From the IMG/VR virus record IMGVR_UViG_3300038825_001787: DNA of 64,000 bases. One strand, 5' to 3'. The position numbers and the translations under genes were made by a program. This document shows, one piece after another, positions 8,271-57,294 of the stretch (positions within the stretch are counted from its first letter, which is position 1; each line of letters opens with the position of its first letter). This stretch comes from an uncultured virus (IMG/VR IMGVR_UViG_3300038825_001787) (taxonomy: Duplodnaviria; Heunggongvirae; Uroviricota; Caudoviricetes). Under the pieces are notes generated by a model. That model was given only the letters and a program-made list of their open reading frames with translations. It was not told the DNA's origin and ran no database searches.

Positions 8271-8891
8271 GATACCACCGCTACGGCCATCATTGCTCTA
8301 GCAGTAATGAATGGTTCAATTAATTCGGTTATTGCTTGGATGACAATTAGACTGGATGGGCACTCTAATGACGCCATTGAACACATGGATGAAATAATGT
8401 TGGGCATGGAAAATCTAGATGATACAATGGAAGCAGCGAGTGAAATGGTCACTAATTTTAACACAGACTTAGAAGAAGCAAAAGCAGTTTTCGCAAAAGT
8501 AGGTGTTGACTTAACAGAATTAGATTTAGATCCACTAGCAGAAGTTGTGGAGAAACTAAAGGAAAACAAAGACGGTTTCACAGAAATACTTGATAACCTA
8601 AAAGAAATAGATGTTACACATTACATCAACCAAGCAAAGAGAATTGATTGGCAAGCAATGTTGGACTCAGCAGAAGAAATCATGGGATTCATACAAGCAA
8701 GAAATGATGGCACTCTGAACGTACCAAAACCAGCAGTCTCTTCTATAAACTTACCAGACATTGGTATAAATTTTGAAGCAGAGGATGACGACGATGATTT
8801 CTTTAGTAGCGGTCCCGAGACCCCAGCATTGACATTAACACCACCAAGTACTAGGTCATTAAACCTAACACCACCTAGAAGAAGAAACTAA
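8121..8891 (+). CDS. Membrane protein (2 TM) with coiled-coil cytoplasmic domain
   Basis: Two hydrophobic segments then an acidic heptad-like region; GGTGA SD upstream. Confidence 0.8.
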   Translation: MMLEDDHIEDKYSNDRYNIDRLVIPTWGFILLFLGPSILTLGYLSYSTTLDTTATAIIALAVMNGSINSVIAWMTIRLDGHSNDAIEHMDEIMLGMENLDDTMEAASEMVTNFNTDLEEAKAVFAKVGVDLTELDLDPLAEVVEKLKENKDGFTEILDNLKEIDVTHYINQAKRIDWQAMLDSAEEIMGFIQARNDGTLNVPKPAVSSINLPDIGINFEAEDDDDDFFSSGPETPALTLTPPSTRSLNLTPPRRRN

Positions 8892-9328
8892 TTTATTTCT
8901 TCTAACTCAAAGAATCTGACTTTGGTAAACGGTGCTTCTCCTTGTGCGCATTGTATTTTTTCTGCTGACATCTTGACAATTTGATTATCATCTAAGAATA
9001 CAATACCTGAACAAGCATCTTTTACTAGTTTAATCATGTTGTCTAAGTCTGGTTTTTTAATTCGCCATTTTCTAGGAACAGGTGTTCTCTTACGTTCTTG
9101 GCTTTTTGGTAATTTAATTCCGAACTGTATTTGCATTCCTATTGGTCCAATCAACACTCCTATGCCAGCATCTAACATTGCTGCATCTGCAAAATACTTT
9201 ACAGATTGTTTACCTTCTCTACTTTTCTTAGGATCGTACGCTCTAGCGAAACCACCGTGCGTACTAAAGCGAGGTCTACCTTGAGACACCGGTTCACCCG
9301 GGATTACTATCGTGAGTTCTTTCTTCAT
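8888..9328 (-). CDS. rusA: RusA-family Holliday junction resolvase
   Basis: IPGEPVSQGRPRF, KPDLDNMIKLVKDACSG, FLDDNQIV. Confidence 0.92.
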   Translation of the reverse strand: MKKELTIVIPGEPVSQGRPRFSTHGGFARAYDPKKSREGKQSVKYFADAAMLDAGIGVLIGPIGMQIQFGIKLPKSQERKRTPVPRKWRIKKPDLDNMIKLVKDACSGIVFLDDNQIVKMSAEKIQCAQGEAPFTKVRFFELEEIN

Positions 9329-9399: not shown

Positions 9400-10095
9400 A
9401 TGGAAGAGGGTCAGGTGTATCACATCAAGTATGGGGCAAATGTCCCTATACAGAAGAGATTTGAGAGCATCGTTAGAATTATAGTCGATATGATAGAAGA
9501 TGGTATGCGTGACCAAGCAGTAAGACAAAAAGCAATACAGATTGTGCAAGCAGCAAATGTTAGAGGACATGATGAAGTCGGAGAAATAAGAGCAATTGTA
9601 AAGTGGGTACAGACACACATGGTCTATCGCAAAGAACCAATTGGCGTGGAGTACTTTCACACGGCAAGAAGGCTACTACGTGACATAGACAATGGGATGT
9701 CTGCCGGTGATTGTGATGATTTCGTTATATTAGGTGGTTCATTATTGGGTTCTCTAGGTTATCCAGTTGGTGCATTAATTGTTGATTCATCTGGCGACGG
9801 TGTTTTCAATCATGTAATGTTAGTTACAAAGACATTCTCACCAAACAGAGAGTTTGGAGACAATTGGATTCCTTGTGAGTTAATTTATCCAGAATTCAAG
9901 TTAGGACAAAGTGTACCTATATCAAAAGTGTACCCATTGATGGCAGATGCAAAAACAATACGGTCACCAATTACACGTAACACAATTAGTGGACTCGGCA
10001 GTGCTAATGTTGTTAGAACACTAAAACCACAAGGAAATAAATTTGGAGATATGCTTGCAAAGCATCCACTAGTCAAACTATTTAATAGGAAGTAA
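9400..10095 (+). CDS. Transglutaminase-like cysteine protease, candidate virion maturation protease
   Basis: WVQTHMVYRKEP.GVE, GDCDDF (catalytic Cys), FNHV (His), WIPCE (acidic residue); first gene of the structural block. Confidence 0.8.
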   Translation: MEEGQVYHIKYGANVPIQKRFESIVRIIVDMIEDGMRDQAVRQKAIQIVQAANVRGHDEVGEIRAIVKWVQTHMVYRKEPIGVEYFHTARRLLRDIDNGMSAGDCDDFVILGGSLLGSLGYPVGALIVDSSGDGVFNHVMLVTKTFSPNREFGDNWIPCELIYPEFKLGQSVPISKVYPLMADAKTIRSPITRNTISGLGSANVVRTLKPQGNKFGDMLAKHPLVKLFNRK

Positions 10096-10099
10096 TTTT

Positions 10100-10282
10100 A
10101 TGCCAATACCCAAAAACGACTCTGCTTACAGGATACTACAAGCACCTCGTTATAATAGAATAAGTGGTTATTCTAACGTCGGTGACATAAGTTGGTCAAG
10201 CAACGAATTTTGGGGAACCCTATTAAGCGGTGCCATAGTGGGAGTAATGGCAGTGACCCTGTTTAACCGATACTACAAATGA
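10100..10282 (+). CDS. Small protein with C-terminal TM helix
   Basis: 60 aa; FWGTLLSGAIVGVMAVTLF followed by basic tail. Confidence 0.7.
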   Translation: MPIPKNDSAYRILQAPRYNRISGYSNVGDISWSSNEFWGTLLSGAIVGVMAVTLFNRYYK

Positions 10283-10293
10283 GATGATTAAGA

Positions 10294-10722
10294 ATGCCAG
10301 CAATGAATATATCCCTACAACGAAGAATAGGAAAACTACCTAAAAGCCCAGACTATTTAGATAATATTAGGCCATCAATATTTGAAAATAGCCATGCAGG
10401 TTATGGTTCGAGAGTACCAACGCCTACACAAAAAGGGTTTTTTGGAATAGGTAAAGCACACAAGACACAGCATTTGGGTAACGAACACGGTGACGGCAAG
10501 ATGACTGCTATATATGGTAATGATGGAACAAGGTCTTTACCAGCACCAGGAATATATGGAATCGGTTCAGCACCAGGTGAAGAAACAATGATGACATCAT
10601 CTATGGACAACAAACCTGCACACTGGAACACACCAGGATTATTCGGTGCTAAGGCATTCGTTTCTCAGAATATCATACCAATAGCACTTGTTGGTGGTAT
10701 GCTTTACTATCTGAGAAAGTGA
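10294..10722 (+). CDS. Gly-rich protein with C-terminal TM anchor (putative virion membrane protein)
   Basis: FFGIG, IYGIG, LFGA motifs; ends IIPIALVGGMLYYLRK. Confidence 0.75.
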   Translation: MPAMNISLQRRIGKLPKSPDYLDNIRPSIFENSHAGYGSRVPTPTQKGFFGIGKAHKTQHLGNEHGDGKMTAIYGNDGTRSLPAPGIYGIGSAPGEETMMTSSMDNKPAHWNTPGLFGAKAFVSQNIIPIALVGGMLYYLRK

Positions 10723-10728
10723 TATGGA

Positions 10729-10812
10729 ATGTTAAACAATAAAAATAGTTGGTTCTTGGTTGGTCTTATTGGGTCAATCTTTGCGCTATCTATAATTGGG
10801 AGAGTGGAATAA
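10729..10812 (+). CDS. 27-aa single-TM microprotein (not in ORF track)
   Basis: MLNNKNSWFLVGLIGSIFALSIIGRVE; its stop overlaps the next ATG (TAATG). Confidence 0.6.
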   Translation: MLNNKNSWFLVGLIGSIFALSIIGRVE

Positions 10813-11678
10813 TGGCTAAAAAAAACTACGGGCCTTACATGGCAGGTGGATTATTACTTGGTGGCCTATATCTTTTAACAAAAAATAATAACTCACTTGG
10901 ACCAACTAATGCAGCAAGACAGTCTGTAGCACAAGACCCATCTTACGCAGGGGTTACACCAGGTTTATTCCATTACATTTCAGAATCAACAGAATGGAAT
11001 GATTACCAAATTGTCCAAACAGCACTATCTCCAGATGTGCCAACAATAATAATTCCCTACACATACAATTCAACAGTTACACACTTGATGGCTCGCGGTA
11101 TGCCACAGAACGTATCAGAAAGCGAAGCAACCAAAATAAGAAACCAAGGATACCCTAGTGTAGTAAATAGATTAGAGAACCTATATAATAGTAGGAATAT
11201 GACTGTAGGAGATAGAAGAGAAATATATGCACATCTATTACCTATCTATAATGTAATGCAAATACCTAACGAACAACGTGTGCCACTACCAGGAGCGACT
11301 GTTTCGACAACCACACCAACAGCAGAGTCAGTGCAAGGCATGGCAATACGCCAAAACATTGCAGGTCATTACGACCCAGGAGTTGGAATAAATGGTAGAC
11401 AATCGACTAACCTTGCAGGTAACAGAAGAACTCGTACAATAAGTGGCATGAAAGCGTGGAGTAAAAATGCAGCAAAACAAATTTACGACCAACGGCAACT
11501 ATCTGCAACAAGGGAAATGACATTAAGAAATATGAAAAGTGGTATGGACATTAACCTCTACGAACCAGTAGACACTTTAGACATCATGTCAGAAACACCT
11601 AAACCAACTATGAATCAGGTAGAAAACGTAGGAAGCGCATTCGTTAAAACGAGAGGCGCTATGCGAAGGCTACTGTGA
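10812..11678 (+). CDS. Putative virion membrane protein with N-terminal TM anchor
   Basis: Start reassigned to ATG 10812 (MAKKNYGPYMAGGLLLGGLYLL) because of the TAATG coupling. Confidence 0.75.
   Translation: MAKKNYGPYMAGGLLLGGLYLLTKNNNSLGPTNAARQSVAQDPSYAGVTPGLFHYISESTEWNDYQIVQTALSPDVPTIIIPYTYNSTVTHLMARGMPQNVSESEATKIRNQGYPSVVNRLENLYNSRNMTVGDRREIYAHLLPIYNVMQIPNEQRVPLPGATVSTTTPTAESVQGMAIRQNIAGHYDPGVGINGRQSTNLAGNRRTRTISGMKAWSKNAAKQIYDQRQLSATREMTLRNMKSGMDINLYEPVDTLDIMSETPKPTMNQVENVGSAFVKTRGAMRRLL
11151..11270. other. TpA-rich island inside CDS
   Basis: taccctagtgtagtaaatagattagagaacctatataatagtagg...ctattacctatctataatg. Confidence 0.6.
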
Positions 11679-11682
11679 TTGA

Positions 11683-14600
11683 ATGACAATGCGACAGCGT
11701 CACCAAAGAACTCGAGATGTATTCGATACGGGTCCATTTGGTGGTTACCGTTCTTTAGGTAATACAGAAGGTATGACACCTTACAATGGGTACTATTACA
11801 CATATGCTGTAAGCACTTGGTCAGTATATGATTCAGAAGGTACGCTTTTGCAAACAGGCGGCGGTCCAAATACAACCAGAAATAGACAAAAAGCCATACA
11901 GTGGATAGATTCTGGAGAACCCCCAACTTACCCGGATAAAGAATTTAATGAGATAGAAAATTATGAACAGAATACTACAACAACGCTACCAAAAGAAGAC
12001 ATTGTTTATGAATCGTTTAGAGATGTATATTATGCTCAAGTGGTAATGGAAGTCATCACTCCAGACGAAGGATATAGTTTAGCATATGAAATGCTTGGGC
12101 ATCGGGCCATGCAGCACGCAAGTTGGCCTACGGCTTACAGACAAGGCATGTCTGATTACGACCCTACTAATTTCTTAGAACAGTTCGAAGCATACGAAAG
12201 AGCAGAAGAACTAGACGCCGCATATAACCCAGGAAAGGCACCAAATCCGTATACAGCCGGAGAGTATCTTGTTCCAAATGTAGGGCAGGCTTTGCTTCCC
12301 GATGAAAAGGTACCAGGAAGTAGTTATCACTACTGGGACGGTAATTTAGATACACACAATTGGGCTTGGCACGGTATTAGTACAAGTATCACAGTAGGTA
12401 AAACTGGAGATACTTCAGACAATACTGAGCCGTACCCCACACCAATATGTGATGCAATCGGTGGTTACGCAATGAGTATCACTCATTACATTGCATCTTA
12501 CAATGAAGAAGGTGGTTTCAATGGATACAGAGTGCTAGCCCAATCAGAATTAGATGGCGGTATACCAGCAGGAATACCCATAGCAACAGTGATGCAGATG
12601 TTCACAAAACCAGCAAAAACTAGAAATGGTAAAGACTTCGGCAAATTTTCATTGGGTGGAGCCCATTTTTATTATGACACAGAGAAGAATCCAATATGGA
12701 GGAAATCTATTGGTATGCCGATGAGTCCGTCATCTTTCTTTTTACTAGAACCAGAACTAGCCACCAAGAACAAGATTAAAAAAATAACTAACACTTTAAT
12801 GAATTCGGACCTTCTCCAAGGAACACACTACATATCTGCAAACGATGCAGAATCAACCAAATCATCTGGCCATAATAGTGTAAAGGGTATATTTACCAAA
12901 GGTCAACTAAGTCGCCAAGATACATTAAACAGAGATTTCGGTGGTCTAGGTTTTGGTTCATATAGAGTAGCAGAAAAGTCCAAACTACCATTTGCCGCCA
13001 GGGTAGAATGGTTGGGAGAAGGTGGTGAGTTTGGTACATATTCAAAACACCCAACAAGCATACCAGATTGTAACGGAGAAGGTAAAACAATGGTAGTTTA
13101 CCGTTTCCCAAGACAACTAGACCCTGTTGCCGATAGAGTAGAACTAGAAAATAATAATAAGAATCAGATGCCAAATTATGACGTGACAACCGCAACAAAA
13201 TATTGTTATCCATACCCTGGAAAAAGCGCAGACAAGAACAGTTACGCATTAATGGGAAGGCTGTTACCAAAGGGGTCATCTGACGATATAGGTTCTGACA
13301 AATTTACCACAGAAATAAACGGTGAAGTATTTGGTGGAAGAAGGTCAATTAAATTCATACCAATGGTAACCCCTTCACTACCACCGTCGAGTAGCCATCG
13401 ACCATATCACGTAGGCGCGGTAGGTTTGGATCAAATAGCGGCTAGTGCCGGTAACACTGCCCAACGAATGTTATTTGACAAAGTAGATCGTTTTTGTTTT
13501 GATACCGCTTCCATGAAAGGTGCAACGATTGCAGTTGCAGACCCGTTAAAGACTGCGTATTTCAATAACTCAATGATTACAAATGCCTACTTTATAGACA
13601 GAGACTTTGATGTTGGAAGCACCGCTTTCGTAATCGGTCAATGTATGTTGTCGTATGAAATGGATTCCGCATCAATAGATACTAAGTTAGGTTTAGTTGA
13701 TGCATCTGAAAGAATGATATTGACAACACGATATAGTAATGCGTTTGGTGGACCAATAAATAGTGGGGACGTTGGACAGCGTTCTGATAAGTTACAACCA
13801 AGAAGCCCAAGAGATGGGACTAACGCTGGTAAGTTTACCGATGATTATTTAATTCCAACCATGACTATGACAACAGAAGACATGGTTAGAAACGAAGAAC
13901 CAATGGGTGCATTAGCAGTTAGAGAGACATTCAAGAAAATATTTGGTTACGAGTTGACACCAGAATGGTTTGGTACATTGAGATTACCTAACCAAGACCC
14001 TAATGATCCTACTAGATATATAGTAGATACTGACTATGGTAAGTTTAGTTATCCCTATAGTATAGTAGGGTTTACTATACCTGGTTATTATAACGGACCT
14101 GTACTAAGATATGGAGAAGATGGAGAGCCACTCGGTGCAACAGATACACACCCAGGTTTTATCGGTAAGAGAAAAGCCTATGTCAATTATCAAAGCCCAT
14201 TTGGTACATTACATCGCCACACTATTAATTTCTCAGAAGAGATAGAAATACAGAACGAAATCATTGATACAGGTGGTTCGGTAACGGACGTATATGAAAA
14301 CCAAACAGATTCAGATAGTGGTGCATTTGGAGAAAAAATAGAAGATGTCACACAGTTAAAAGCAGAAACAATACAATTCGAAGAATGGTTAAGAGGTAGG
14401 TTAATGAACGACTACGGTGATGTGAGATTCACCGATAACGAATATAAGGCTTACTTTAGATTTTGGAATAAAGATTATGTTACAGGGAGAATGTTACTCG
14501 AAGCAGGTTATACAATACCTAATATCAACATGACAGCGTATGAAAACGAAGCAAGAAATCTTGGAATACCAGTTAGTGCTGCAGAACTCGAAGAATCAGA

Positions 14601-15021
14601 ACCAACACAAGTGGGACTTGGGGCATTTACCGACGCATCCGGATTTACAATAACAGACGTTACCGCTAAGTGGGGTGCAATAGGTTCTGCAAGTCCTCGT
14701 TACACAGGAGATGTCGGGATGTCCATGGTACCATACGACGCAGACGTTGTTGGTGAAGAAATGGGTTACATGGCAATGAGTAACTTAGATGGACTAGGAT
14801 ATCCAGGGGAAGGTATAGTTGATTCTGCCTTAAATACTAGCAAAGACTTAGCGATGGAAGGTGCTAAATGGAGTGCTATAGCAGTAGGTGCCCCAATTGG
14901 TATAAGCGCAGGATTGTCAGTAATTATGTTAGCAGGAACAGTATGTGTTGCGATAGGCTCAGCAGCAGCAATAGATCAGTTAACAAAAGTCGTTAGTAAG
15001 AAAAAACAACCTCTAAGTTAA
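11683..15021 (+). CDS. Large putative virion protein with C-terminal TM anchor
   Basis: 1112 aa, Gly/Tyr/Pro-rich; FGGLG, VGLG, LDGLG motifs; hydrophobic C-terminus then KKK. Confidence 0.8.
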   Translation: MTMRQRHQRTRDVFDTGPFGGYRSLGNTEGMTPYNGYYYTYAVSTWSVYDSEGTLLQTGGGPNTTRNRQKAIQWIDSGEPPTYPDKEFNEIENYEQNTTTTLPKEDIVYESFRDVYYAQVVMEVITPDEGYSLAYEMLGHRAMQHASWPTAYRQGMSDYDPTNFLEQFEAYERAEELDAAYNPGKAPNPYTAGEYLVPNVGQALLPDEKVPGSSYHYWDGNLDTHNWAWHGISTSITVGKTGDTSDNTEPYPTPICDAIGGYAMSITHYIASYNEEGGFNGYRVLAQSELDGGIPAGIPIATVMQMFTKPAKTRNGKDFGKFSLGGAHFYYDTEKNPIWRKSIGMPMSPSSFFLLEPELATKNKIKKITNTLMNSDLLQGTHYISANDAESTKSSGHNSVKGIFTKGQLSRQDTLNRDFGGLGFGSYRVAEKSKLPFAARVEWLGEGGEFGTYSKHPTSIPDCNGEGKTMVVYRFPRQLDPVADRVELENNNKNQMPNYDVTTATKYCYPYPGKSADKNSYALMGRLLPKGSSDDIGSDKFTTEINGEVFGGRRSIKFIPMVTPSLPPSSSHRPYHVGAVGLDQIAASAGNTAQRMLFDKVDRFCFDTASMKGATIAVADPLKTAYFNNSMITNAYFIDRDFDVGSTAFVIGQCMLSYEMDSASIDTKLGLVDASERMILTTRYSNAFGGPINSGDVGQRSDKLQPRSPRDGTNAGKFTDDYLIPTMTMTTEDMVRNEEPMGALAVRETFKKIFGYELTPEWFGTLRLPNQDPNDPTRYIVDTDYGKFSYPYSIVGFTIPGYYNGPVLRYGEDGEPLGATDTHPGFIGKRKAYVNYQSPFGTLHRHTINFSEEIEIQNEIIDTGGSVTDVYENQTDSDSGAFGEKIEDVTQLKAETIQFEEWLRGRLMNDYGDVRFTDNEYKAYFRFWNKDYVTGRMLLEAGYTIPNINMTAYENEARNLGIPVSAAELEESEPTQVGLGAFTDASGFTITDVTAKWGAIGSASPRYTGDVGMSMVPYDADVVGEEMGYMAMSNLDGLGYPGEGIVDSALNTSKDLAMEGAKWSAIAVGAPIGISAGLSVIMLAGTVCVAIGSAAAIDQLTKVVSKKKQPLS
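14008..14115. other. TpA-rich island inside CDS
   Basis: cctactagatatatagtagatactgactatgg...ccctatagtatagtagggtttactatacc. Confidence 0.65.
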
Positions 15022-15060
15022 GCAACACACTCTTAACAAACCACCTAGTGCGGATAGACG

Positions 15061-16329
15061 ATGGTAGTCAGTCCCGACTTTGCTGATGGAGTTATTTATG
15101 ACTTCAAGGAGAAGTCTAAAGAAATTATCGATGCATATTCACTAAGTCACTTAAGAGGAACAGCCGCAATGGATCCGGTGTCTAGGCTAGGTGAAGAATT
15201 CATAAAATTAGCACAAGGTAGCACAACAAGCCAAACAATGACTGAATCAATGTTAGAGTCAGAAAAAAGATTGTACTTGAGAACAATTGAGCAAAAAGTG
15301 CTGGAAGTGTCCAGAAACCAAAGTGCTACCTTAAACGGAATTGCATCAGCACACGCTAAACAAGCACCAATTAAAGATGCTAATTGGGATAGGACAATCA
15401 CATCTGTTGCTAGGGAAGTAGACAGAATAGCAATGAAAAATGCCGACTTGGTAAATATGTTACCCAAAGAACAACAGCAAGTTATGGATGGTATGTTTTC
15501 AACCGTTGTTGACCAAGTTAGATTCAAACACAGCAGAGACCCATCTGCAGAAAGTTCTATGCTAGCAGAAAAGGCAGCATTGAAAGAATTACGCAAAGTA
15601 GAGTCACACTTGGAAAAAGTTAGCAAAAACACATTAAAAGCAAAGCAAGATATGATTTACAATGATTTTAATGAGCAACTAAGACGTTACATGGCATCTT
15701 TTGCACAACTTCGCAAAGCAATGAAGCCCCAAGAAGTAAAGGCAACAAATGCACACATCTCTTCAATCAAAGCAATGATAAGAGAAATCAAAACCAACAG
15801 AAGATTGGTTAGTGACGAAGAGTTGCTGAAAGCACATATTGGTGCATTACAAGATCAGTTTAGAATACTAAATGATATGGAAGGTAGTGTTAGTGAAACA
15901 GTTTCTGCTGTTGCAGGCATATTTGGTTCAACACATAGAAGAACCAACAAAACACATTTTGCATTAGATGGTTTTGGTGCAATGGTCTCAGCCCAGGAGA
16001 TTGCCAACAAACACCCAGAAAGAACAAATCCAGCACACATTCGTTCAATGCAGTATTTTATGAATCAAGGGCAAACATTTGAAGAAGCACACGAGTCAGC
16101 AATAGCATATGGGTTCGAACCCGATGGTGGAGTAATGGCAATGGATTTAGACCGCAGAGTAAATTATCTCGGACAAGTACCAGTCACCGATGCAACAGCA
16201 GCATCTCATACAATTAAAGAAAACTCTGATTTTGTTAAGGGATTGACGTCTGGTGGCACGCTTTTGGGTTTAGGAACTGTCCTTGCTATAGGAAGTGTAG
16301 TCGGATTAGTAGTAATATCAAGTAGGTGA
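15061..16329 (+). CDS. Coiled-coil protein with C-terminal TM anchor
   Basis: 422 aa, helical/charged; LDGFG and YLG motifs; hydrophobic C-terminus; TTAACA 28 nt upstream. Confidence 0.8.
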   Translation: MVVSPDFADGVIYDFKEKSKEIIDAYSLSHLRGTAAMDPVSRLGEEFIKLAQGSTTSQTMTESMLESEKRLYLRTIEQKVLEVSRNQSATLNGIASAHAKQAPIKDANWDRTITSVAREVDRIAMKNADLVNMLPKEQQQVMDGMFSTVVDQVRFKHSRDPSAESSMLAEKAALKELRKVESHLEKVSKNTLKAKQDMIYNDFNEQLRRYMASFAQLRKAMKPQEVKATNAHISSIKAMIREIKTNRRLVSDEELLKAHIGALQDQFRILNDMEGSVSETVSAVAGIFGSTHRRTNKTHFALDGFGAMVSAQEIANKHPERTNPAHIRSMQYFMNQGQTFEEAHESAIAYGFEPDGGVMAMDLDRRVNYLGQVPVTDATAASHTIKENSDFVKGLTSGGTLLGLGTVLAIGSVVGLVVISSR

Positions 16330-38010: not shown

Positions 38011-38715
38011 ATGCGTCTGACAGGAAGGTTCATTGAATCATTCAAACACAGGCATGGTGTTGTACTAGGTATTACTAGAAGTGGTAAGACTTTCTTGGCC
38101 GCAAAGGTCTTACAACGAATACAAGAAACAGGTGGTCACACATTGTTTATTGACCCGAAGCATGATGACGGATATTCCCATCTTGGTACAATTTGTCATT
38201 CACCAATAGAAGTTTACGAGCAACTTTTATTGAAGAATCCAGCAATTATTTTTAGAACACCCGGAACATCAGAAGAAAGAATAGAAGCATTAGATAGAGT
38301 AGTAGAGTTAATGTTTACATTACAAAGGACAGCAGGATTCAAAAGAATCCGACGTGTTATTGCAATTGACGAAATACAGTTATTCGTTAAGAAAGGTAAC
38401 TCTCGTGCAGTAGAAATGATTTGGACAATTGGAGCAGGTATTGGAATCGTAGGTATGGCATTGACACAAAGAATCCAATTGCTTAACGAAACTGCATGGT
38501 CACAATCAGACAATAAAGTAATTTTCAGAATAGAAGATAGACCAGAGTATCTTAGAAGTAGAAACTTGGAACACTATGTTGAGCAATTAGATTTCTTTAC
38601 CGACCCAATGAATAAATATTGGTTTTACTATACACAAGGCGGAGGAAAGTGGAAGAAGCATGAACCAGTTCCGTTGGTTGACAAGACCAAATCACTAAAT
38701 CTAAGTCGTTTTTAA
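38011..38715 (+). CDS. A32/FtsK-HerA-superfamily genome packaging ATPase
   Basis: Walker A GITRSGKT, LFIDPK, Walker B IAIDEIQ, ALTQR, SQSD; 234 aa, as in tailless icosahedral viruses. Confidence 0.82.
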   Translation: MRLTGRFIESFKHRHGVVLGITRSGKTFLAAKVLQRIQETGGHTLFIDPKHDDGYSHLGTICHSPIEVYEQLLLKNPAIIFRTPGTSEERIEALDRVVELMFTLQRTAGFKRIRRVIAIDEIQLFVKKGNSRAVEMIWTIGAGIGIVGMALTQRIQLLNETAWSQSDNKVIFRIEDRPEYLRSRNLEHYVEQLDFFTDPMNKYWFYYTQGGGKWKKHEPVPLVDKTKSLNLSRF

Positions 38716-45608: not shown

Positions 45609-46013
45609 ATGAAACTAGGAAAGAAAGTTATGAAATTCGCAGACGATTACCCACTAGCAGTGCTAGCATTAGGTACGGTTGGAATAATGTATGCTTTCGA
45701 GAATGTCGGACAGATGAACGGTCTAGGTCAAGCAAAATTCAAGACTGGTGGCAGCAACATGGATGATTTGTTTAGAAAAACCGGACACACAGGAAGCGCA
45801 GCACCAGGAACAGGAAGATGGGATACAGTAATGCCTTCTCCATCTGGACCACAAGTGCGCTACGATGCAGACTATCACACTCAACCACTTATGATGGATC
45901 CACAACTAGAAAAGATGTTACAGGAAAGAGGCAAGAGACCTCTTGTGCAAAGCGCATCTATTAGACACGGGTATGAACCAGTCATCTTTGCAGGATTAAG
46001 ACAAACACTGTGA
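45609..46013 (+). CDS. Small virion membrane protein, N-terminal TM
   Basis: KFADDYPLAVLALG..., MNGLG motif. Confidence 0.75.
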   Translation: MKLGKKVMKFADDYPLAVLALGTVGIMYAFENVGQMNGLGQAKFKTGGSNMDDLFRKTGHTGSAAPGTGRWDTVMPSPSGPQVRYDADYHTQPLMMDPQLEKMLQERGKRPLVQSASIRHGYEPVIFAGLRQTL

Positions 46014-54855: not shown

Positions 54856-57294
54856 ATGGCAAATGAGTTTAGAATAAAAAATGGATTAATTGTTGGTAAC
54901 ACCAAGCAGATGTCCTTCAGTGGAACCACTGGGAAACTAACCATAGGTAGCGACTTAACCACCACAATCGATGAAACTGTTCGAGATGAGGCTTTACTTC
55001 ATCTAATTACAAACAACGATGACAGCGACGGCGACGGTGTTGTTTCCTACGATATGATTATCGAGAGGCTGATGGGGGACGCAGACAGTCCCAACCAAGG
55101 TCCAGTATTAGCCCTGATGTCGTCCAATACTGACAACTCCGGCAGTGGTTCAACCGATATGATTGATGACACCGACATAGGTCAACTTCTATGGAGAGCA
55201 CATACAGATTCTAGTGAAGCCAACTTCGGTACGATAAGAGTCAATATTCAGGATGCTTCCAATGCTGCCAAAGATTCAAAGATGTTCTTCAAGGTGCAAA
55301 AAGCCAACTCCATTACCGAATTACTTACCCTAGATGGGGGTAATGACAAGGTAGTGGTACCTAACAGTGGATTCCAAATCGGTAGTGGGGCGACTGTCAC
55401 CACAATAGCCACAAGTACTAGCCTCGGCACTTCAAACACCACGTTGTCGACCACTGGTGCAATCAAATCCTACGTTGACGCAAACGCAGGTGGTTCAGTT
55501 GGTGGTAGTGATACTGAATTATTGTATAATGATGGTGGAACAGAAAATGGTATAGCATCTTTAACTTGGACTGATACGGCAGGTTCAGAACAATTATTAC
55601 TTTCAGATGCTAGTGATACATCATTATTCAAAATTATTCAAACAGGTACAGGTGATGCTTTAGAGGTTCATGACGAAGGATCAGATACAACAGTTTTCAA
55701 AGTTGACCAATCGGGTCATGTTCAGATAGGTACGACAAGTGAAACCATTGGTGCATTAAGAGTTAAAGGTTATCAAGGTGCTAGTTCAGTTAGTAGTGTC
55801 TCGACTTATAGAATATCAAGATTAGAAGATGGTGTTACAGGCAGTTTAGAAATAACAAGTTCTCAATCTGATGGTGATATGTATGTGGGTGCGGGAAGTA
55901 CGGGTGCTGACTTAATTTTTCACACTAGAAGAAGTTCACCTTCAGTAGCGAATTATGAAAATATAAGACTGACATCAAATGGGGAAATAGGTATTGAAGG
56001 TTCAAACTTCGGAAGTTCAGGTCAAGTTCTCACGTCAGGAGGCTCAGGAGCAGCCGTTTCTTGGAGCACAATTAGTGGCGGTGCTTCTGCTATTGATGAC
56101 TTATCAGATGCAATTACTACTGCTACTTCTAACATAGGATTAGGTAGCGGTGCTTTAGATTCTTTGACTGCAAGTAGTGGTAATTACAACGTAGCATTAG
56201 GTATTAATGCCGGAACAGCAATTACAACAGGAGATAGAAATATCTCTATTGGTTATGGTGCAGGTGATGGTTATGATGCAGAATCAGATAACATAGCAAT
56301 AGGTTACGATGCTTTAGGTGGTACATCAACAGCCGCAGCAAAGACAATAGCGATAGGAAATTATGCGGCAGACGCACTAACAACTGCCTCTGAAATAATA
56401 GCAATAGGATATAACGCCGCAGGTTCATTAACAACAGGCTATAGTAATACGGGTGAGTCAGTTTATATTGGTAATGAAGCAGGTGCAGCAATTACAAATG
56501 GAACTGCAAATGTAGTAGTAGGTCATAAAGCGGGCCAAAACCTAAGCACCTATACTTCGGGAACTTTGAGATGTTCCTACAATGTCCTCATCGGCTTTGA
56601 AGCGGGGCAACAGCAGACCATAGGTGGAAGAAATCTCGCCATTGGAACAAGGGCGATGTGGTTAGAACAAGAAACAGGTTATAACACCTATGTTGGTAAT
56701 TATTCGGGGCTTTATGCGAGAGGGGCTGAGAAGAATACTGCATTAGGATATGGCGCATTACAAGGTCAATCTAACTACCTAACGGGCGACTACAATACAG
56801 GTATAGGTTACAATTCACTAAGTTACATTTCATCGGGAGCAACCAATATAGCCATAGGACACGAAGCAGGAAATAACATCACTTCAGGTTCTAACAATGT
56901 CGTTATTGGTGCGGCTGATGTTTCAAGTGCAACAGGTGATGACCAACTATCAATAAGTTCCGGTGATGGTGGCGTTACTTGGATTACAGGTGATTCTGAT
57001 GGTGGTATTGCGTCTAAAGCACAAGTTGTAGCAGTAACAACAGGCACTACTGTCTTAACAGAAGCACAATCCGGTTCATACGTTTATGTAACAGGTGGTG
57101 CAGTAACATTACCTACAAGCGCAACTAAGGGAACACAATTTACTATATTCAATAACACAGGTTCAGATTTAACAGTAGGTCTTGGTACAAACAATTCTAT
57201 TGTAAGTAATTGGGCTACTAATGCAGCAGTATCAGACAATGAAGCAACATCATACATTTGCGTGTCTGCTACAAATTGGGTACAAGTAGGTTGA
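54856..57294 (+). CDS. Fibre/receptor-binding protein with YadA-head-like (NxAIG) beta-roll repeats
   Basis: MANEFRIK start; repeated NVALG/NIAIG/NTALG units; GSSGQVLTSGGSG linker. Confidence 0.82.
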   Translation: MANEFRIKNGLIVGNTKQMSFSGTTGKLTIGSDLTTTIDETVRDEALLHLITNNDDSDGDGVVSYDMIIERLMGDADSPNQGPVLALMSSNTDNSGSGSTDMIDDTDIGQLLWRAHTDSSEANFGTIRVNIQDASNAAKDSKMFFKVQKANSITELLTLDGGNDKVVVPNSGFQIGSGATVTTIATSTSLGTSNTTLSTTGAIKSYVDANAGGSVGGSDTELLYNDGGTENGIASLTWTDTAGSEQLLLSDASDTSLFKIIQTGTGDALEVHDEGSDTTVFKVDQSGHVQIGTTSETIGALRVKGYQGASSVSSVSTYRISRLEDGVTGSLEITSSQSDGDMYVGAGSTGADLIFHTRRSSPSVANYENIRLTSNGEIGIEGSNFGSSGQVLTSGGSGAAVSWSTISGGASAIDDLSDAITTATSNIGLGSGALDSLTASSGNYNVALGINAGTAITTGDRNISIGYGAGDGYDAESDNIAIGYDALGGTSTAAAKTIAIGNYAADALTTASEIIAIGYNAAGSLTTGYSNTGESVYIGNEAGAAITNGTANVVVGHKAGQNLSTYTSGTLRCSYNVLIGFEAGQQQTIGGRNLAIGTRAMWLEQETGYNTYVGNYSGLYARGAEKNTALGYGALQGQSNYLTGDYNTGIGYNSLSYISSGATNIAIGHEAGNNITSGSNNVVIGAADVSSATGDDQLSISSGDGGVTWITGDSDGGIASKAQVVAVTTGTTVLTEAQSGSYVYVTGGAVTLPTSATKGTQFTIFNNTGSDLTVGLGTNNSIVSNWATNAAVSDNEATSYICVSATNWVQVG

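Follow-up and report, generated by a model that had tools for sequence, protein, structure and literature searches.

A transglutaminase-fold enzyme and a recurrent glycine-containing motif in a group D magrovirus-type genome: a possible maturation protease

Genes and features of the locus

The window, the whole stretch of 64,000 nucleotides analysed here, is of the 'group D magrovirus' type and belongs to a genome of 130-140 kb. Group D magroviruses are uncultured virus-like elements of marine group II archaea in the ocean. The locus contains the gene for a transglutaminase-fold enzyme and genes for several membrane-anchored proteins that carry a short glycine-containing motif (Table 1). The enzyme gene is syntenic with those of the anchored proteins and is surrounded by genes that carry the motif. 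As a core gene it was detected in all three complete related genomes (G002-G004), and it is the only protease-like gene that they have in common.

Table 1. Positions in the window of the enzyme, its neighbours, the motif sites and the packaging ATPase
Feature	Position	Strand	Remarks
Transglutaminase-fold Cys-His-Glu enzyme	9400..10095	+	231 aa; domain 1-183, low-confidence tail 184-231
DCDDFV with catalytic Cys105	9709..9726	+	Cys105 codon 9712-9714
His138 codon	9811-9813	+	triad
Glu160 codon	9877-9879	+	triad
ISGLG	9985-9999	+	tail of the ORF 9400-10095 enzyme
C-terminal basic 'KHP' helix of enzyme tail, GDMLAKHPLVKLFNRK	10045..10092	+	
Tail-anchored protein	10100..10282	+	60 aa; start = hydrophobic/Gly boundary of relatives
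Anchored protein	10294..10722	+	142 aa; FFGIG, IYGIG, PGLFG
FFGIG	10438-10452	+	ORF 10294
IYGIG	10552-10566	+	ORF 10294
PGLFG	10633-10647	+	ORF 10294
Tail-anchored protein	11683..15021	+	1112 aa; FGGLG, QVGLG, LDGLG
FGGLG	12937-12951	+	ORF 11683
QVGLG	14608-14622	+	ORF 11683
LDGLG	14785-14799	+	ORF 11683
Tail-anchored protein	15061..16329	+	422 aa; coiled-coil part, LDGFG, 'KHP module' (~15979-16215), anchor
LDGFG	15964-15978	+	ORF 15061
FtsK/HerA-type packaging ATPase	38011..38715	+	profile and phrog matches
MNGLG	45714..45728	+	directly after N-terminal hydrophobic stretch of ORF 45609-46013
Further [MILF]xG[LIF]G sites	28357, 34991, 36806, 40222, 40399, 40543, 46715, 47664, 47778, 48290		small ORFs among these mostly have one close relative each for comparison

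The preliminary description of this DNA had assigned the ORF 9400-10095 product a transglutaminase-like fold and a Cys-His-acid triad, and both assignments were borne out. The AF2 model (pLDDT 74.8) was confident for the domain and fell below 50 in the tail. In VIA comparisons the model reached Z values of 13.7 to 3kd4 (2.9 A, 142 aligned) and 10.3 to 3isr, and of 11.1, 10.8 and 10.6 to FXIII, PNGase and TG2, respectively, and nearly all of the top 20 Foldseek matches had a transglutaminase-like fold. C105, H138 and E160 were invariant, in the order Cys-His-Glu, in all 26 aligned homologues, and an intein in one homologue (P0122) was inserted exactly at the catalytic Cys. The N-terminus, MEEGQVYHIKYG, is not hydrophobic and no signal peptide was apparent by eye. 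The protein is thus a predicted cytoplasmic enzyme of papain-like fold with a Cys105-His138-Glu160 triad intact in sequence and a flexible tail. The transglutaminase-like fold also covers lysins, amidases, cross-linkers and acyltransferases, and the Foldseek and VIA matches included the non-proteases PNGase, TG2/FXIII, NAT and Rad4; adenain was absent among the fold matches listed.

Sequence searches recovered 204 homologues of the enzyme, and the family profile reached 2627 proteins. Among 32 remote relatives sampled, 26 matched PF01841 (Transglut_core), and in 24 the match exceeded the cut-off. The window protein gave no match to PF01841 at E<=0.1 and none to Pfam Peptidase_C5; its only Pfam lead was the BTLCP family (PF06035), at E 0.062 and 13.5 bits, which is below the cut-off of 27. 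PDB sequence searches with the protein and its profile returned nothing useful, and tblastn searches of 'phages' with the enzyme and with the thermosome returned no match. Collagen-like extensions were present in 10 of 120 homologues among the matches listed; in those homologues, the extensions hint at a fibre or host-acting role.

The ISGLG site lies within the enzyme's own low-confidence tail. The motif was found 13-14 residues past YPLxA in 115 of the 116 cluster representatives that have a tail, and the homologue tails with this fixed-offset motif ranged from 18 to 205 residues in length. The fifth motif residue was Gly in 25 of these 115 tails, and K, A, D and S were common. The enzymes of G003 and G004 have neither the tail nor the motif site. 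The end of the tail is recurrent among homologues, with KHP or HP and a basic terminus, and helices were predicted at residues 216-229 (AF2).

Frequency, conservation and placement of the motif

The preliminary description proposed that [MILF]xG[LIF]G sites form a processing code and quoted seven peptides from the locus. Translation confirmed all seven at the positions given, one of which, QVGLG, falls outside the proposed pattern because its first residue is Q. Among the 67 non-overlapping ORFs of the window (20,874 aa) the pattern occurred 20 times, compared with 4.2 +/- 2.0 expected from per-protein shuffles, none of 1000 of which reached 20. The excess is directional; the reversed motif was observed 7 times vs. 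4.3 expected and was not enriched. As the preliminary description had anticipated, the enrichment persisted outside hydrophobic helices (16 vs. 4.0 expected; 0/1000 shuffles), in or at which 4 of the 20 sites lie. When residues were shuffled within 20-residue blocks, which preserves Gly-rich patches, the helix-free count of 16 compared with 3.9 expected (0/1000), and the reversed motif was found 5 times vs. 3.9. In an unbiased scan that covered 90,000 similarly shaped patterns, [MILF]xG[LIF]G ranked 6th (Poisson p 4.8e-8); ranks 1-4 were variants of [ST]xR[KR]K, and 16 of the 17 matches of that pattern were in one repeat protein. G[LIF]G alone was somewhat enriched (36 vs. 22 expected). The relaxed motif [MILFV]xG[LIFMVY][GAS] was not specific and had no directionality, with 42 forward and 45 reverse matches vs. 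~29 expected. Motif flanks were only slightly linker-like (p ~0.03), and the per-protein association of the motif with membrane proteins was not significant (Fisher p 0.11) when helices were called by a crude predictor, which overlooks several short anchors. Many of the sites were aromatic-Gly rich (GFFGIG, GIYGIG, GMFGIG, GLFGLG).

Comparison among relatives showed that conservation is centred on hydrophobic-x-Gly-hydrophobic. The Gly in fifth place, which the proposed code had included, is not the conserved part and is often substituted. This four-residue core was present at ISGLG in 77 of 77 homologues (the strict five-residue pattern in 35), at FFGIG in 62 of 62 (strict, 51), at IYGIG in 50 of 62 (strict, 39) and at LDGFG in 25 of 27 (strict, 8). 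Conservation of the core was poor at FGGLG (5/32) and LDGLG (12/32), and the G-hydrophobic-G columns of QVGLG were 0.79/0.61/0.70 conserved down to 20% identity. Overall, four of the seven quoted sites were well conserved, and the Gly column was 100% conserved at four sites with variable flanks. The motifs of ORF 10294 were conserved between variable spacers (63 sequences), and AVGGLG of ORF 6540 was kept in 62 of 66 homologues. In these alignments, hydrophobic-x-Gly-hydrophobic with a Gly or other small residue behind it is a conserved linear motif, which lies in the linkers of the neighbouring tail-anchored proteins and in the enzyme tail. A candidate site in ORF 39541, LRGLG, located where the basic part meets the anchor, was rejected; it is not conserved as such, and relatives have LKALG and MSALG. 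The peptide IQGLGFKDK is common to the window and G003.

The suggestion that the sites usually separate a soluble part from a transmembrane anchor held for some proteins only. It was correct for ORF 10294 and for LDGLG, where the anchor follows 26 residues on, and loosely so for ORF 15061, where 92 residues lie between the site and the anchor. It fails for FGGLG, and the ORF 9400 protein itself has no anchor.

Gene starts, fusions and a shared module also fell at the motif. Of 73 homologues of the ORF 10100 protein, 35 begin at M-x-IPK and another 35 have an N-terminal extension of 16-26 aa, the last residues of which are [LIM]-G in 34 of the 35. Two of the 73 are fused to the enzyme, with MSGLG or SLGALG preceding the junction. 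The KHP module of ORF 15061 is 40-43% identical to enzyme tails in eight loci, and in L011 and L014 it forms a clean indel. Two unrelated proteins, the ORF 15061 product and the tailed enzyme, have this module after the motif. In these comparisons the motif marks module boundaries, namely the start of the ORF 10100 protein and the module common to ORF 15061 and the enzyme tails.

Co-occurrence of the enzyme gene and the motif across related genomes, a check suggested in the preliminary description, was examined in G002 and G004. Both encode the enzyme; the motif excess was modest in G002 (17 vs. 9.1 expected; 9 of 500 shuffles reached the count) and absent in G004 (11 vs. 8.3 expected; 63 of 300 shuffles). 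The modest excess in G002 and its absence in G004, although the enzyme is encoded in both, count against the processing mechanism considered below.

A possible processing mechanism and its alternatives

The preliminary description interpreted the enzyme as a maturation protease that trims itself and releases membrane-tethered virion proteins, by analogy with adenovirus, in an archaeal virus. This reading is plausible and unproven, and we give it a probability of about one in three. As a cysteine endopeptidase, the enzyme would first cut its own tail at the site located a fixed 13 residues past the domain and would then cut the same motif in the adjoining anchored proteins. Soluble domains and small peptide modules would thereby lose their tether to the membrane while particles are assembled. 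We infer the cutting at the motif, the position of the cut, the 9400 enzyme as its agent and its timing. The excess, direction and conservation of the motif, the fold, the invariant triad, the core-gene status, the fixed site in the enzyme tail, the module boundaries and the precedents of LapG and adenovirus speak for this mechanism. The non-proteases within the fold, the variable fifth residue, the poor conservation of FGGLG and LDGLG, the misfit of QVGLG, the weak association of the motif with membrane proteins and linker-like flanks, the relaxed motif's lack of directionality and the collagen-like extensions speak against it.

The motif may instead remain uncut and serve in docking or assembly, joining the anchored proteins to a shell, to each other or to an AAA ATPase, and the enzyme may have a separate job, most likely as a membrane-associated enzyme directed against the host envelope when the virus enters or leaves. 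FxGxG 'SHP' boxes and GLFG repeats are parallels for such docking motifs. This explanation, which we regard as only slightly less probable than processing, would fit the aromatic-Gly richness of many sites, the freedom of the fifth position and the occurrence of some sites in conserved, probably folded regions (AVGGLG of ORF 6540 and IQGLGFKDK, the latter shared with G003), and it gains from the collagen-like extensions of some homologues and from archaeal-virus enzymes of this fold (PeiP, PeiW, psiM2) being wall lysins. However, docking leaves unexplained why the site lies at a fixed offset after the domain and is present solely when a tail exists, and why the motif coincides with gene starts and fusions; moreover, no signal peptide is visible in the enzyme by eye, and any partner protein would be hypothetical. 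Cutting by a different protease, whether from the host or encoded by the virus and so far unrecognised, is distinctly unlikely. Most proteins of the window and the related genomes have no family match, and therefore another protease could be hidden among them; a retropepsin-like protein of 112 aa is encoded by G002, and G004 has the enzyme without the motif excess. The retropepsin-like gene, however, was found in G002 only (one of five records searched and one of three complete genomes), and Gly as the second-last residue before the cut is unusual for retropepsins, whereas the transglutaminase-like gene is the conserved one, bears the site itself and sits among the motif-bearing genes.

The enzyme could also be an acyl-transferase that introduces Gln-Lys cross-links into virion proteins or, like a sortase, cuts at the motif and transfers the new C-terminus to a protein or lipid amine. 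All transglutaminase-fold enzymes act via a thioester, the founding members of the fold are cross-linkers (FXIII and TG2, with the Z values given above), and a Gln-rich stretch is present in ORF 6540, two genes upstream of the enzyme. Neither Gln nor Lys is tied to the motif, however, no acceptor is named, and microbial members of known activity are mostly hydrolases (LapG, CPR-C4, PeiW/PeiP, PNGase), which makes acyl transfer very unlikely in our estimation. Most improbable is that the motif excess is a functionless by-product of Gly-rich composition, membrane helices or a few paralogous segments. The motif was picked after the sequence was read, a few sites touch helices and G[LIF]G is itself somewhat enriched; nevertheless, helix removal and block shuffling, under which the reversed pattern stays flat, the scan, whose 90,000-pattern correction the excess survives, and the conservation of the Gly columns have already largely refuted this explanation.

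Comparison with known systems and virion context

Maturation by cysteine proteases at Gly-containing sites is known from the eukaryotic PRD1-adenovirus branch (adenoviruses, giant viruses and virophages), and we know of no such maturation in prokaryotic members of that lineage. The wider formula for adenain sites is (M/I/L)XGX-G. According to PMC4246237, cutting of IVGLG between L and G frees pVIc, QRGFG is also cut between F and G, and the catalytic residues of the adenovirus protease (AVP) are His54, Glu71 and Cys122. The preliminary description called the sites adenain-like; the window enzyme itself differs from AVP in that Cys105 precedes His138 and the fold is transglutaminase-like. The likeness is that the window enzyme is a predicted cysteine enzyme, that precursors associated with membrane or capsid, together with basic core proteins, are among its candidate substrates, and that the motif (hydrophobic, x, Gly, any/hydrophobic, Gly) is common to many candidate precursors, as the AVP site is to AVP precursors. 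The fifth Gly, unlike in AVP sites, is not conserved, and AVP cleavage is proven whereas proteolysis by the window enzyme is inferred.

LapG (BTLCP, MEROPS C93) shares the fold with the window enzyme (VIA Z 9.3, 3.7 A, 132 aligned; Foldseek 4fgp) and the Cys-His-acid triad. According to PMC3032545, LapG cuts LapA between two small residues, A108 and A109, giving the new end AGPSAAGTGG and releasing a membrane-tethered adhesin. LapG differs in being periplasmic, in having one adhesin as its substrate and in its site sequence. The pseudomurein endoisopeptidases PeiW and PeiP of methanogen viruses share the catalytic fold (Z 9.6 and 10.1; the psiM2 protein in BFVD) but are wall lysins without a link to a repeated motif in viral proteins, and to our knowledge pseudomurein does not occur in marine group II archaea. 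Papain-like leader proteases cut their own C-terminus, e.g., potyvirus HC-Pro between the glycines of YxVGG. As in the window enzyme, a domain is followed by a Gly-containing site at a fixed short distance, whatever comes next; in contrast, these leader proteases belong to RNA-virus polyproteins and a different fold subfamily, without homology.

If the window enzyme does process its neighbours, it would represent a type of maturation protease new to viruses. It would also offer a first route to the functions of an element that is abundant in the ocean and for which PMC5434244, PMC10160649 and PMC11706807 report that structural genes have not been identified; the portions of the magrovirus literature available to us held no mention of a transglutaminase.

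The genes around the enzyme are candidate virion genes. ORF 42970 was considered as a shell protein and rejected; its AF2 model had a pLDDT of 60.9 and a best VIA Z of 6.4, and the scores to the jelly-roll capsid proteins listed (SPV1, Z 5.8) are too low to indicate anything beyond a common arrangement. The model had no Foldseek match at E<=0.001, the profile matched nothing among PDB sequences, and for ORFs 42970 and 41164 the ESM Atlas held unnamed clusters only and no models. A broader proposal is that group D magroviruses, on whose particle type the three papers above are silent, are membrane-containing viruses of the STIV/PRD1 kind, with an FtsK/HerA ATPase and a jelly-roll-like shell protein, and are matured by a self-freeing transglutaminase-fold protease that cuts hydrophobic-x-Gly-hydrophobic before Gly and so detaches tail-anchored proteins and small peptide modules from the membrane. 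Adenovirus maturation would then have a convergent counterpart in a prokaryotic virus, based on another protease fold; we consider this combination unlikely. The 38011 ATPase matched phrog_2666 (E 1.8e-13), its profile matched STIV B204 over the full length (E 8.2e-5), and its sole match in 'phages' was the packaging ATPase of tectivirus GC1. Its gene lies 28 kb from the enzyme gene.

Enzyme domain, tail and module seams

The transglutaminase-like enzyme was modelled by AF2 as a confident domain (residues 1-183) and a tail (184-231) with a pLDDT below 50, which contains ISGLG. Its top fold matches were all transglutaminase-like: 3kd4, a 'putative protease' (Z 13.7), FXIII (11.1), PNGase (10.8), 3isr (10.3), PeiP (10.1), PeiW (9.6) and LapG (9.3). 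GDCDDF (Cys105), NH (His138) and WIPxE (Glu160) were invariant in the homologues. Both lines of evidence agree with the fold and Cys-His-acid triad assigned in the preliminary description. The family comprised 204 matches in the first search and 2627 proteins after profile searching, and Pfam Transglut_core was detected in 26 of 32 sampled distant members (24 above the cut-off). The protein is not filed under C93 because it falls below the C93 Pfam cut-off. LAGLIDADG-domain inteins interrupt the gene in two homologues, P0122 and P0143, and in P0122 the insertion point is exactly the catalytic Cys, which fits a site unable to change. The gene was present in all three complete related genomes (G002, G003 and G004) and was not found in three fragments of 44-76% completeness.

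The motif lies 13 or 14 residues past the domain end in 115 of 116 tailed homologues; in the exception, an insertion is present and the motif lies further downstream. The sequence that follows is 18-205 residues long and may be a basic helix, a membrane anchor, collagen-like repeats or other domains. Ten among the 120 homologues listed have collagen-like repeats (PF01391) after the motif and others have long, unrelated C-terminal domains; therefore, the enzyme domain heads very different proteins. The G003 and G004 enzymes stop directly beyond the domain and lack the site. A site is thus found only where a removable part exists, as a self-cutting protease predicts.

Among homologues of the small protein encoded next to the enzyme (ORF 10100), 35 of 73 start as in the window (M-x-IPK), 35 carry an N-terminal extension of 16-26 residues, and two form a fusion with the enzyme in which MSGLG or SLGALG lies shortly upstream of the junction. 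In 34 of the 35 extended homologues, the extension ends in [LIM]-G next to the shared core, and Met1 of the window protein aligns with this Gly. Downstream of LDGFG, ORF 15061 has a stretch of approximately 50 residues that shares 40-43% identity with enzyme tails from eight other loci, and the whole module is a clean indel directly after LDGFG in two relatives. Taken together, the tail site, the ORF 10100 boundary and the LDGFG indel place the motif at the seam of shuffled, split and fused modules, which supports a putative processing site. The window's own enzyme ends in a short KHP helix; that the KHP module might dock to the enzyme like adenovirus pVIc is pure speculation.

Features of the window and of related genomes
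Feature	Position	Strand	Remarks
RusA resolvase gene	8888-9328	-	within + strand block, just upstream of enzyme gene
Tail-anchored protein, 60 aa	10100-10282	+	gene next to enzyme
KHP module (...EIAxKHP...H...M...F.EAH...)	15979-16215		after motif in ORF 15061
KHP module in enzyme tails	L065, L070, L076, L078, L081, L083, L085, L086 (related loci)		after motif
Giant ORF, 2118 aa	31481-37837		guanylate kinase, DUF5824, DUF5754 (Pfam/PHROGs)
P-loop ATPase, 234 aa	38011-38715		family profile compared with STIV B204
Arg/Lys/Thr repeat protein, 377 aa	39541-40674		beside ATPase
Most conserved protein of the group, 204 aa	41164-41778		near ATPase
Beta-rich protein, 329 aa	42970-43959		near ATPase
Retropepsin-like aspartyl protease, 112 aa	G002 97175-97513	-	L133; adjoins region syntenic with window left end
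Giant ORF, 2208 aa	G002 131318-137944		strung enzyme domains, Ham1 among them

Abundance and conservation of the motif

The seven peptides quoted in the preliminary description (ISGLG in the enzyme tail; FFGIG and IYGIG in ORF 10294; FGGLG, QVGLG and LDGLG in ORF 11683; LDGFG in ORF 15061) all translate where it had placed them, and QVGLG does not match the pattern proposed there, [MILF]xG[LIF]G. This pattern occurred 20 times in the 67 window ORFs (20,874 residues) compared to an expectation of 4.2 ± 2.0 from shuffling, and no shuffle of 1000 reached 20; the reversed pattern occurred 7 times compared to 4.3. The excess persisted when hydrophobic helices were left out (16 vs. 4.0 expected; 0 of 1000 shuffles). 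Shuffling within 20-residue blocks, which preserves Gly-rich patches, gave an expectation of 3.9 for these 16 (0 of 1000 shuffles; reversed pattern, 5 vs. 3.9), so the motif is commoner than Gly-rich sequence predicts, contrary to the refuting condition set in the preliminary description, and its excess in the window is real. Since the motif was chosen after the sequence had been read, the scan was widened to every pattern of this shape (90,000), among which it ranked sixth (p 4.8e-8). Ranks one to four were variants of [ST]xR[KR]K, a pattern with 16 of its 17 matches in the repeat protein ORF 39541; rank five seems to come from that repeat too.

Among 80 metagenome and 25 IMG/VR loci, the hydrophobic-x-Gly-hydrophobic core was kept at ISGLG (77/77 homologues), FFGIG (62/62), IYGIG (50/62) and LDGFG (25/27), where the Gly column was 100% conserved and the flanks 0.46-0.54. 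Conservation of the core was weak at FGGLG (5/32) and LDGLG (12/32), and at QVGLG the G-hydrophobic-G part was conserved at sequence identities as low as 20%. Three of four sites in small ORFs at 45.6-48.5 kb were kept in one close relative, the sole relative compared. The fifth residue in 115 enzyme tails was K (37), G (25), A (21), D (11) or S (11), and the sixth was Gly in 83. The final Gly of the proposed five-residue code is thus not its conserved part; the motif should rather be stated as hydrophobic-x-Gly-hydrophobic followed by small residues.

Processing site or docking motif

Reported adenovirus sites (IVGL|G, QRGF|G) resemble the motif (PMC4246237). The enzyme itself differs from adenain in both its fold and its order of catalytic residues. 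LapG, described as a transglutaminase-like cysteine protease, frees the tethered adhesin LapA by cleavage between two alanines within a Gly/Ala-rich region (PMC3032545); among the cases described in these sources it is the nearest proven one in fold and logic to the 9400 enzyme, for which we infer cutting.

A protease that trims itself and cuts the motif in its neighbours, releasing membrane-tethered virion proteins, is the best single explanation, with a probability of about one in three. Nearly as likely is the main rival, in which the motif is an uncut docking motif and the enzyme has another job. The transglutaminase-like fold also comprises amidases, cross-linkers, acyltransferases and inactive scaffolds. 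The only archaeal-virus enzymes of this fold known to us are the wall lysins PeiW and PeiP, which favors the rival and weakens the link between motif and enzyme. Against a docking role stands the joint absence of tail and site from the G003 and G004 enzymes.

The size of the excess in the gene-carrying genomes also weakens the link: it was 4.7-fold in the window, 1.9-fold in G002 (reached by 9 of 500 shuffles) and 2.2-fold in G003 (0 of 300), and G004 had none (63 of 300) although the enzyme gene is present. Counted by protein with a crude helix predictor, the motif was not significantly associated with membrane proteins (5 of 14 helix-bearing vs. 7 of 53 others, p 0.11); its density per residue was about four times higher in helix-bearing proteins (8 sites in 3495 residues vs. 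10 in 17,379). The retropepsin-like gene, whose product is another candidate protease, was detected in one of five related records, G002.

Genome type and virion

The + strand carries nearly all window genes, and the G+C content is about 40%. Few genes were named by Pfam or PHROGs, among them ribonucleotide reductase, RusA, HAD phosphatase and a thermosome subunit. HK97 capsid protein, portal, terminase nuclease and prohead protease had no match among 51 window ORFs compared with PHROGs and 52 with Pfam. G002, a complete record of 140,336 bases with terminal repeats, is syntenic with the window and encodes family B DNA polymerase, MCM, primases, RNase H, serine recombinase, thermosome and an Rpb1-like RNA polymerase subunit; an HK97 module was not recognizable in it. 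The gene content of both matches the 'group D magrovirus' type, which the literature cited still terms MCP-lacking or possibly plasmid-like, leaving its nature open (PMC10160649, PMC11706807).

The family profile of the ATPase gives a full-length match to the STIV B204 packaging ATPase (E 8.2e-5). The sole match of the ATPase in 50,697 phage records was the packaging ATPase of tectivirus GC1 (24.8% identity over 91%, E 9e-3). These two similarities point to a membrane-containing, non-tailed virion. The ATPase also matches phrog_2666. ORF 39541, which accounts for the window's most enriched five-residue patterns, has a long repeat (KRRKTTRRKTARRK...) that spans approximately residues 40-215, with two hydrophobic helices after it, and resembles a protamine-like, DNA-condensing, membrane-tied protein. 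ORFs 41164 and 42970 are candidate shell proteins. The former is 77% identical to its G002 homologue and 50% to those of G003 and G004. The model of the latter is beta-rich with disordered loops (pLDDT 60.9). Its fold matches are weak (best Z 6.4); jelly-roll capsid proteins are among them (SPV1, Z 5.8) and score below a meaningful level. The ATPase and its neighbors fit a virus of the STIV/PRD1 kind that contains a membrane, the shell protein being a candidate only, and this context raises the stakes of the maturation-protease reading. An 812-aa protein (54856-57294) is likely a surface fiber or spike, as its PHROG matches (E 7.8e-21) are to families with the annotations tail spike and virion structural protein.

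The giant ORFs of the window and G002 are strings of enzyme domains, like polyproteins. The order of these domains differs between the two genomes, and both motif sites of the window ORF (residues 1171 and 1776) lie between Pfam domains.
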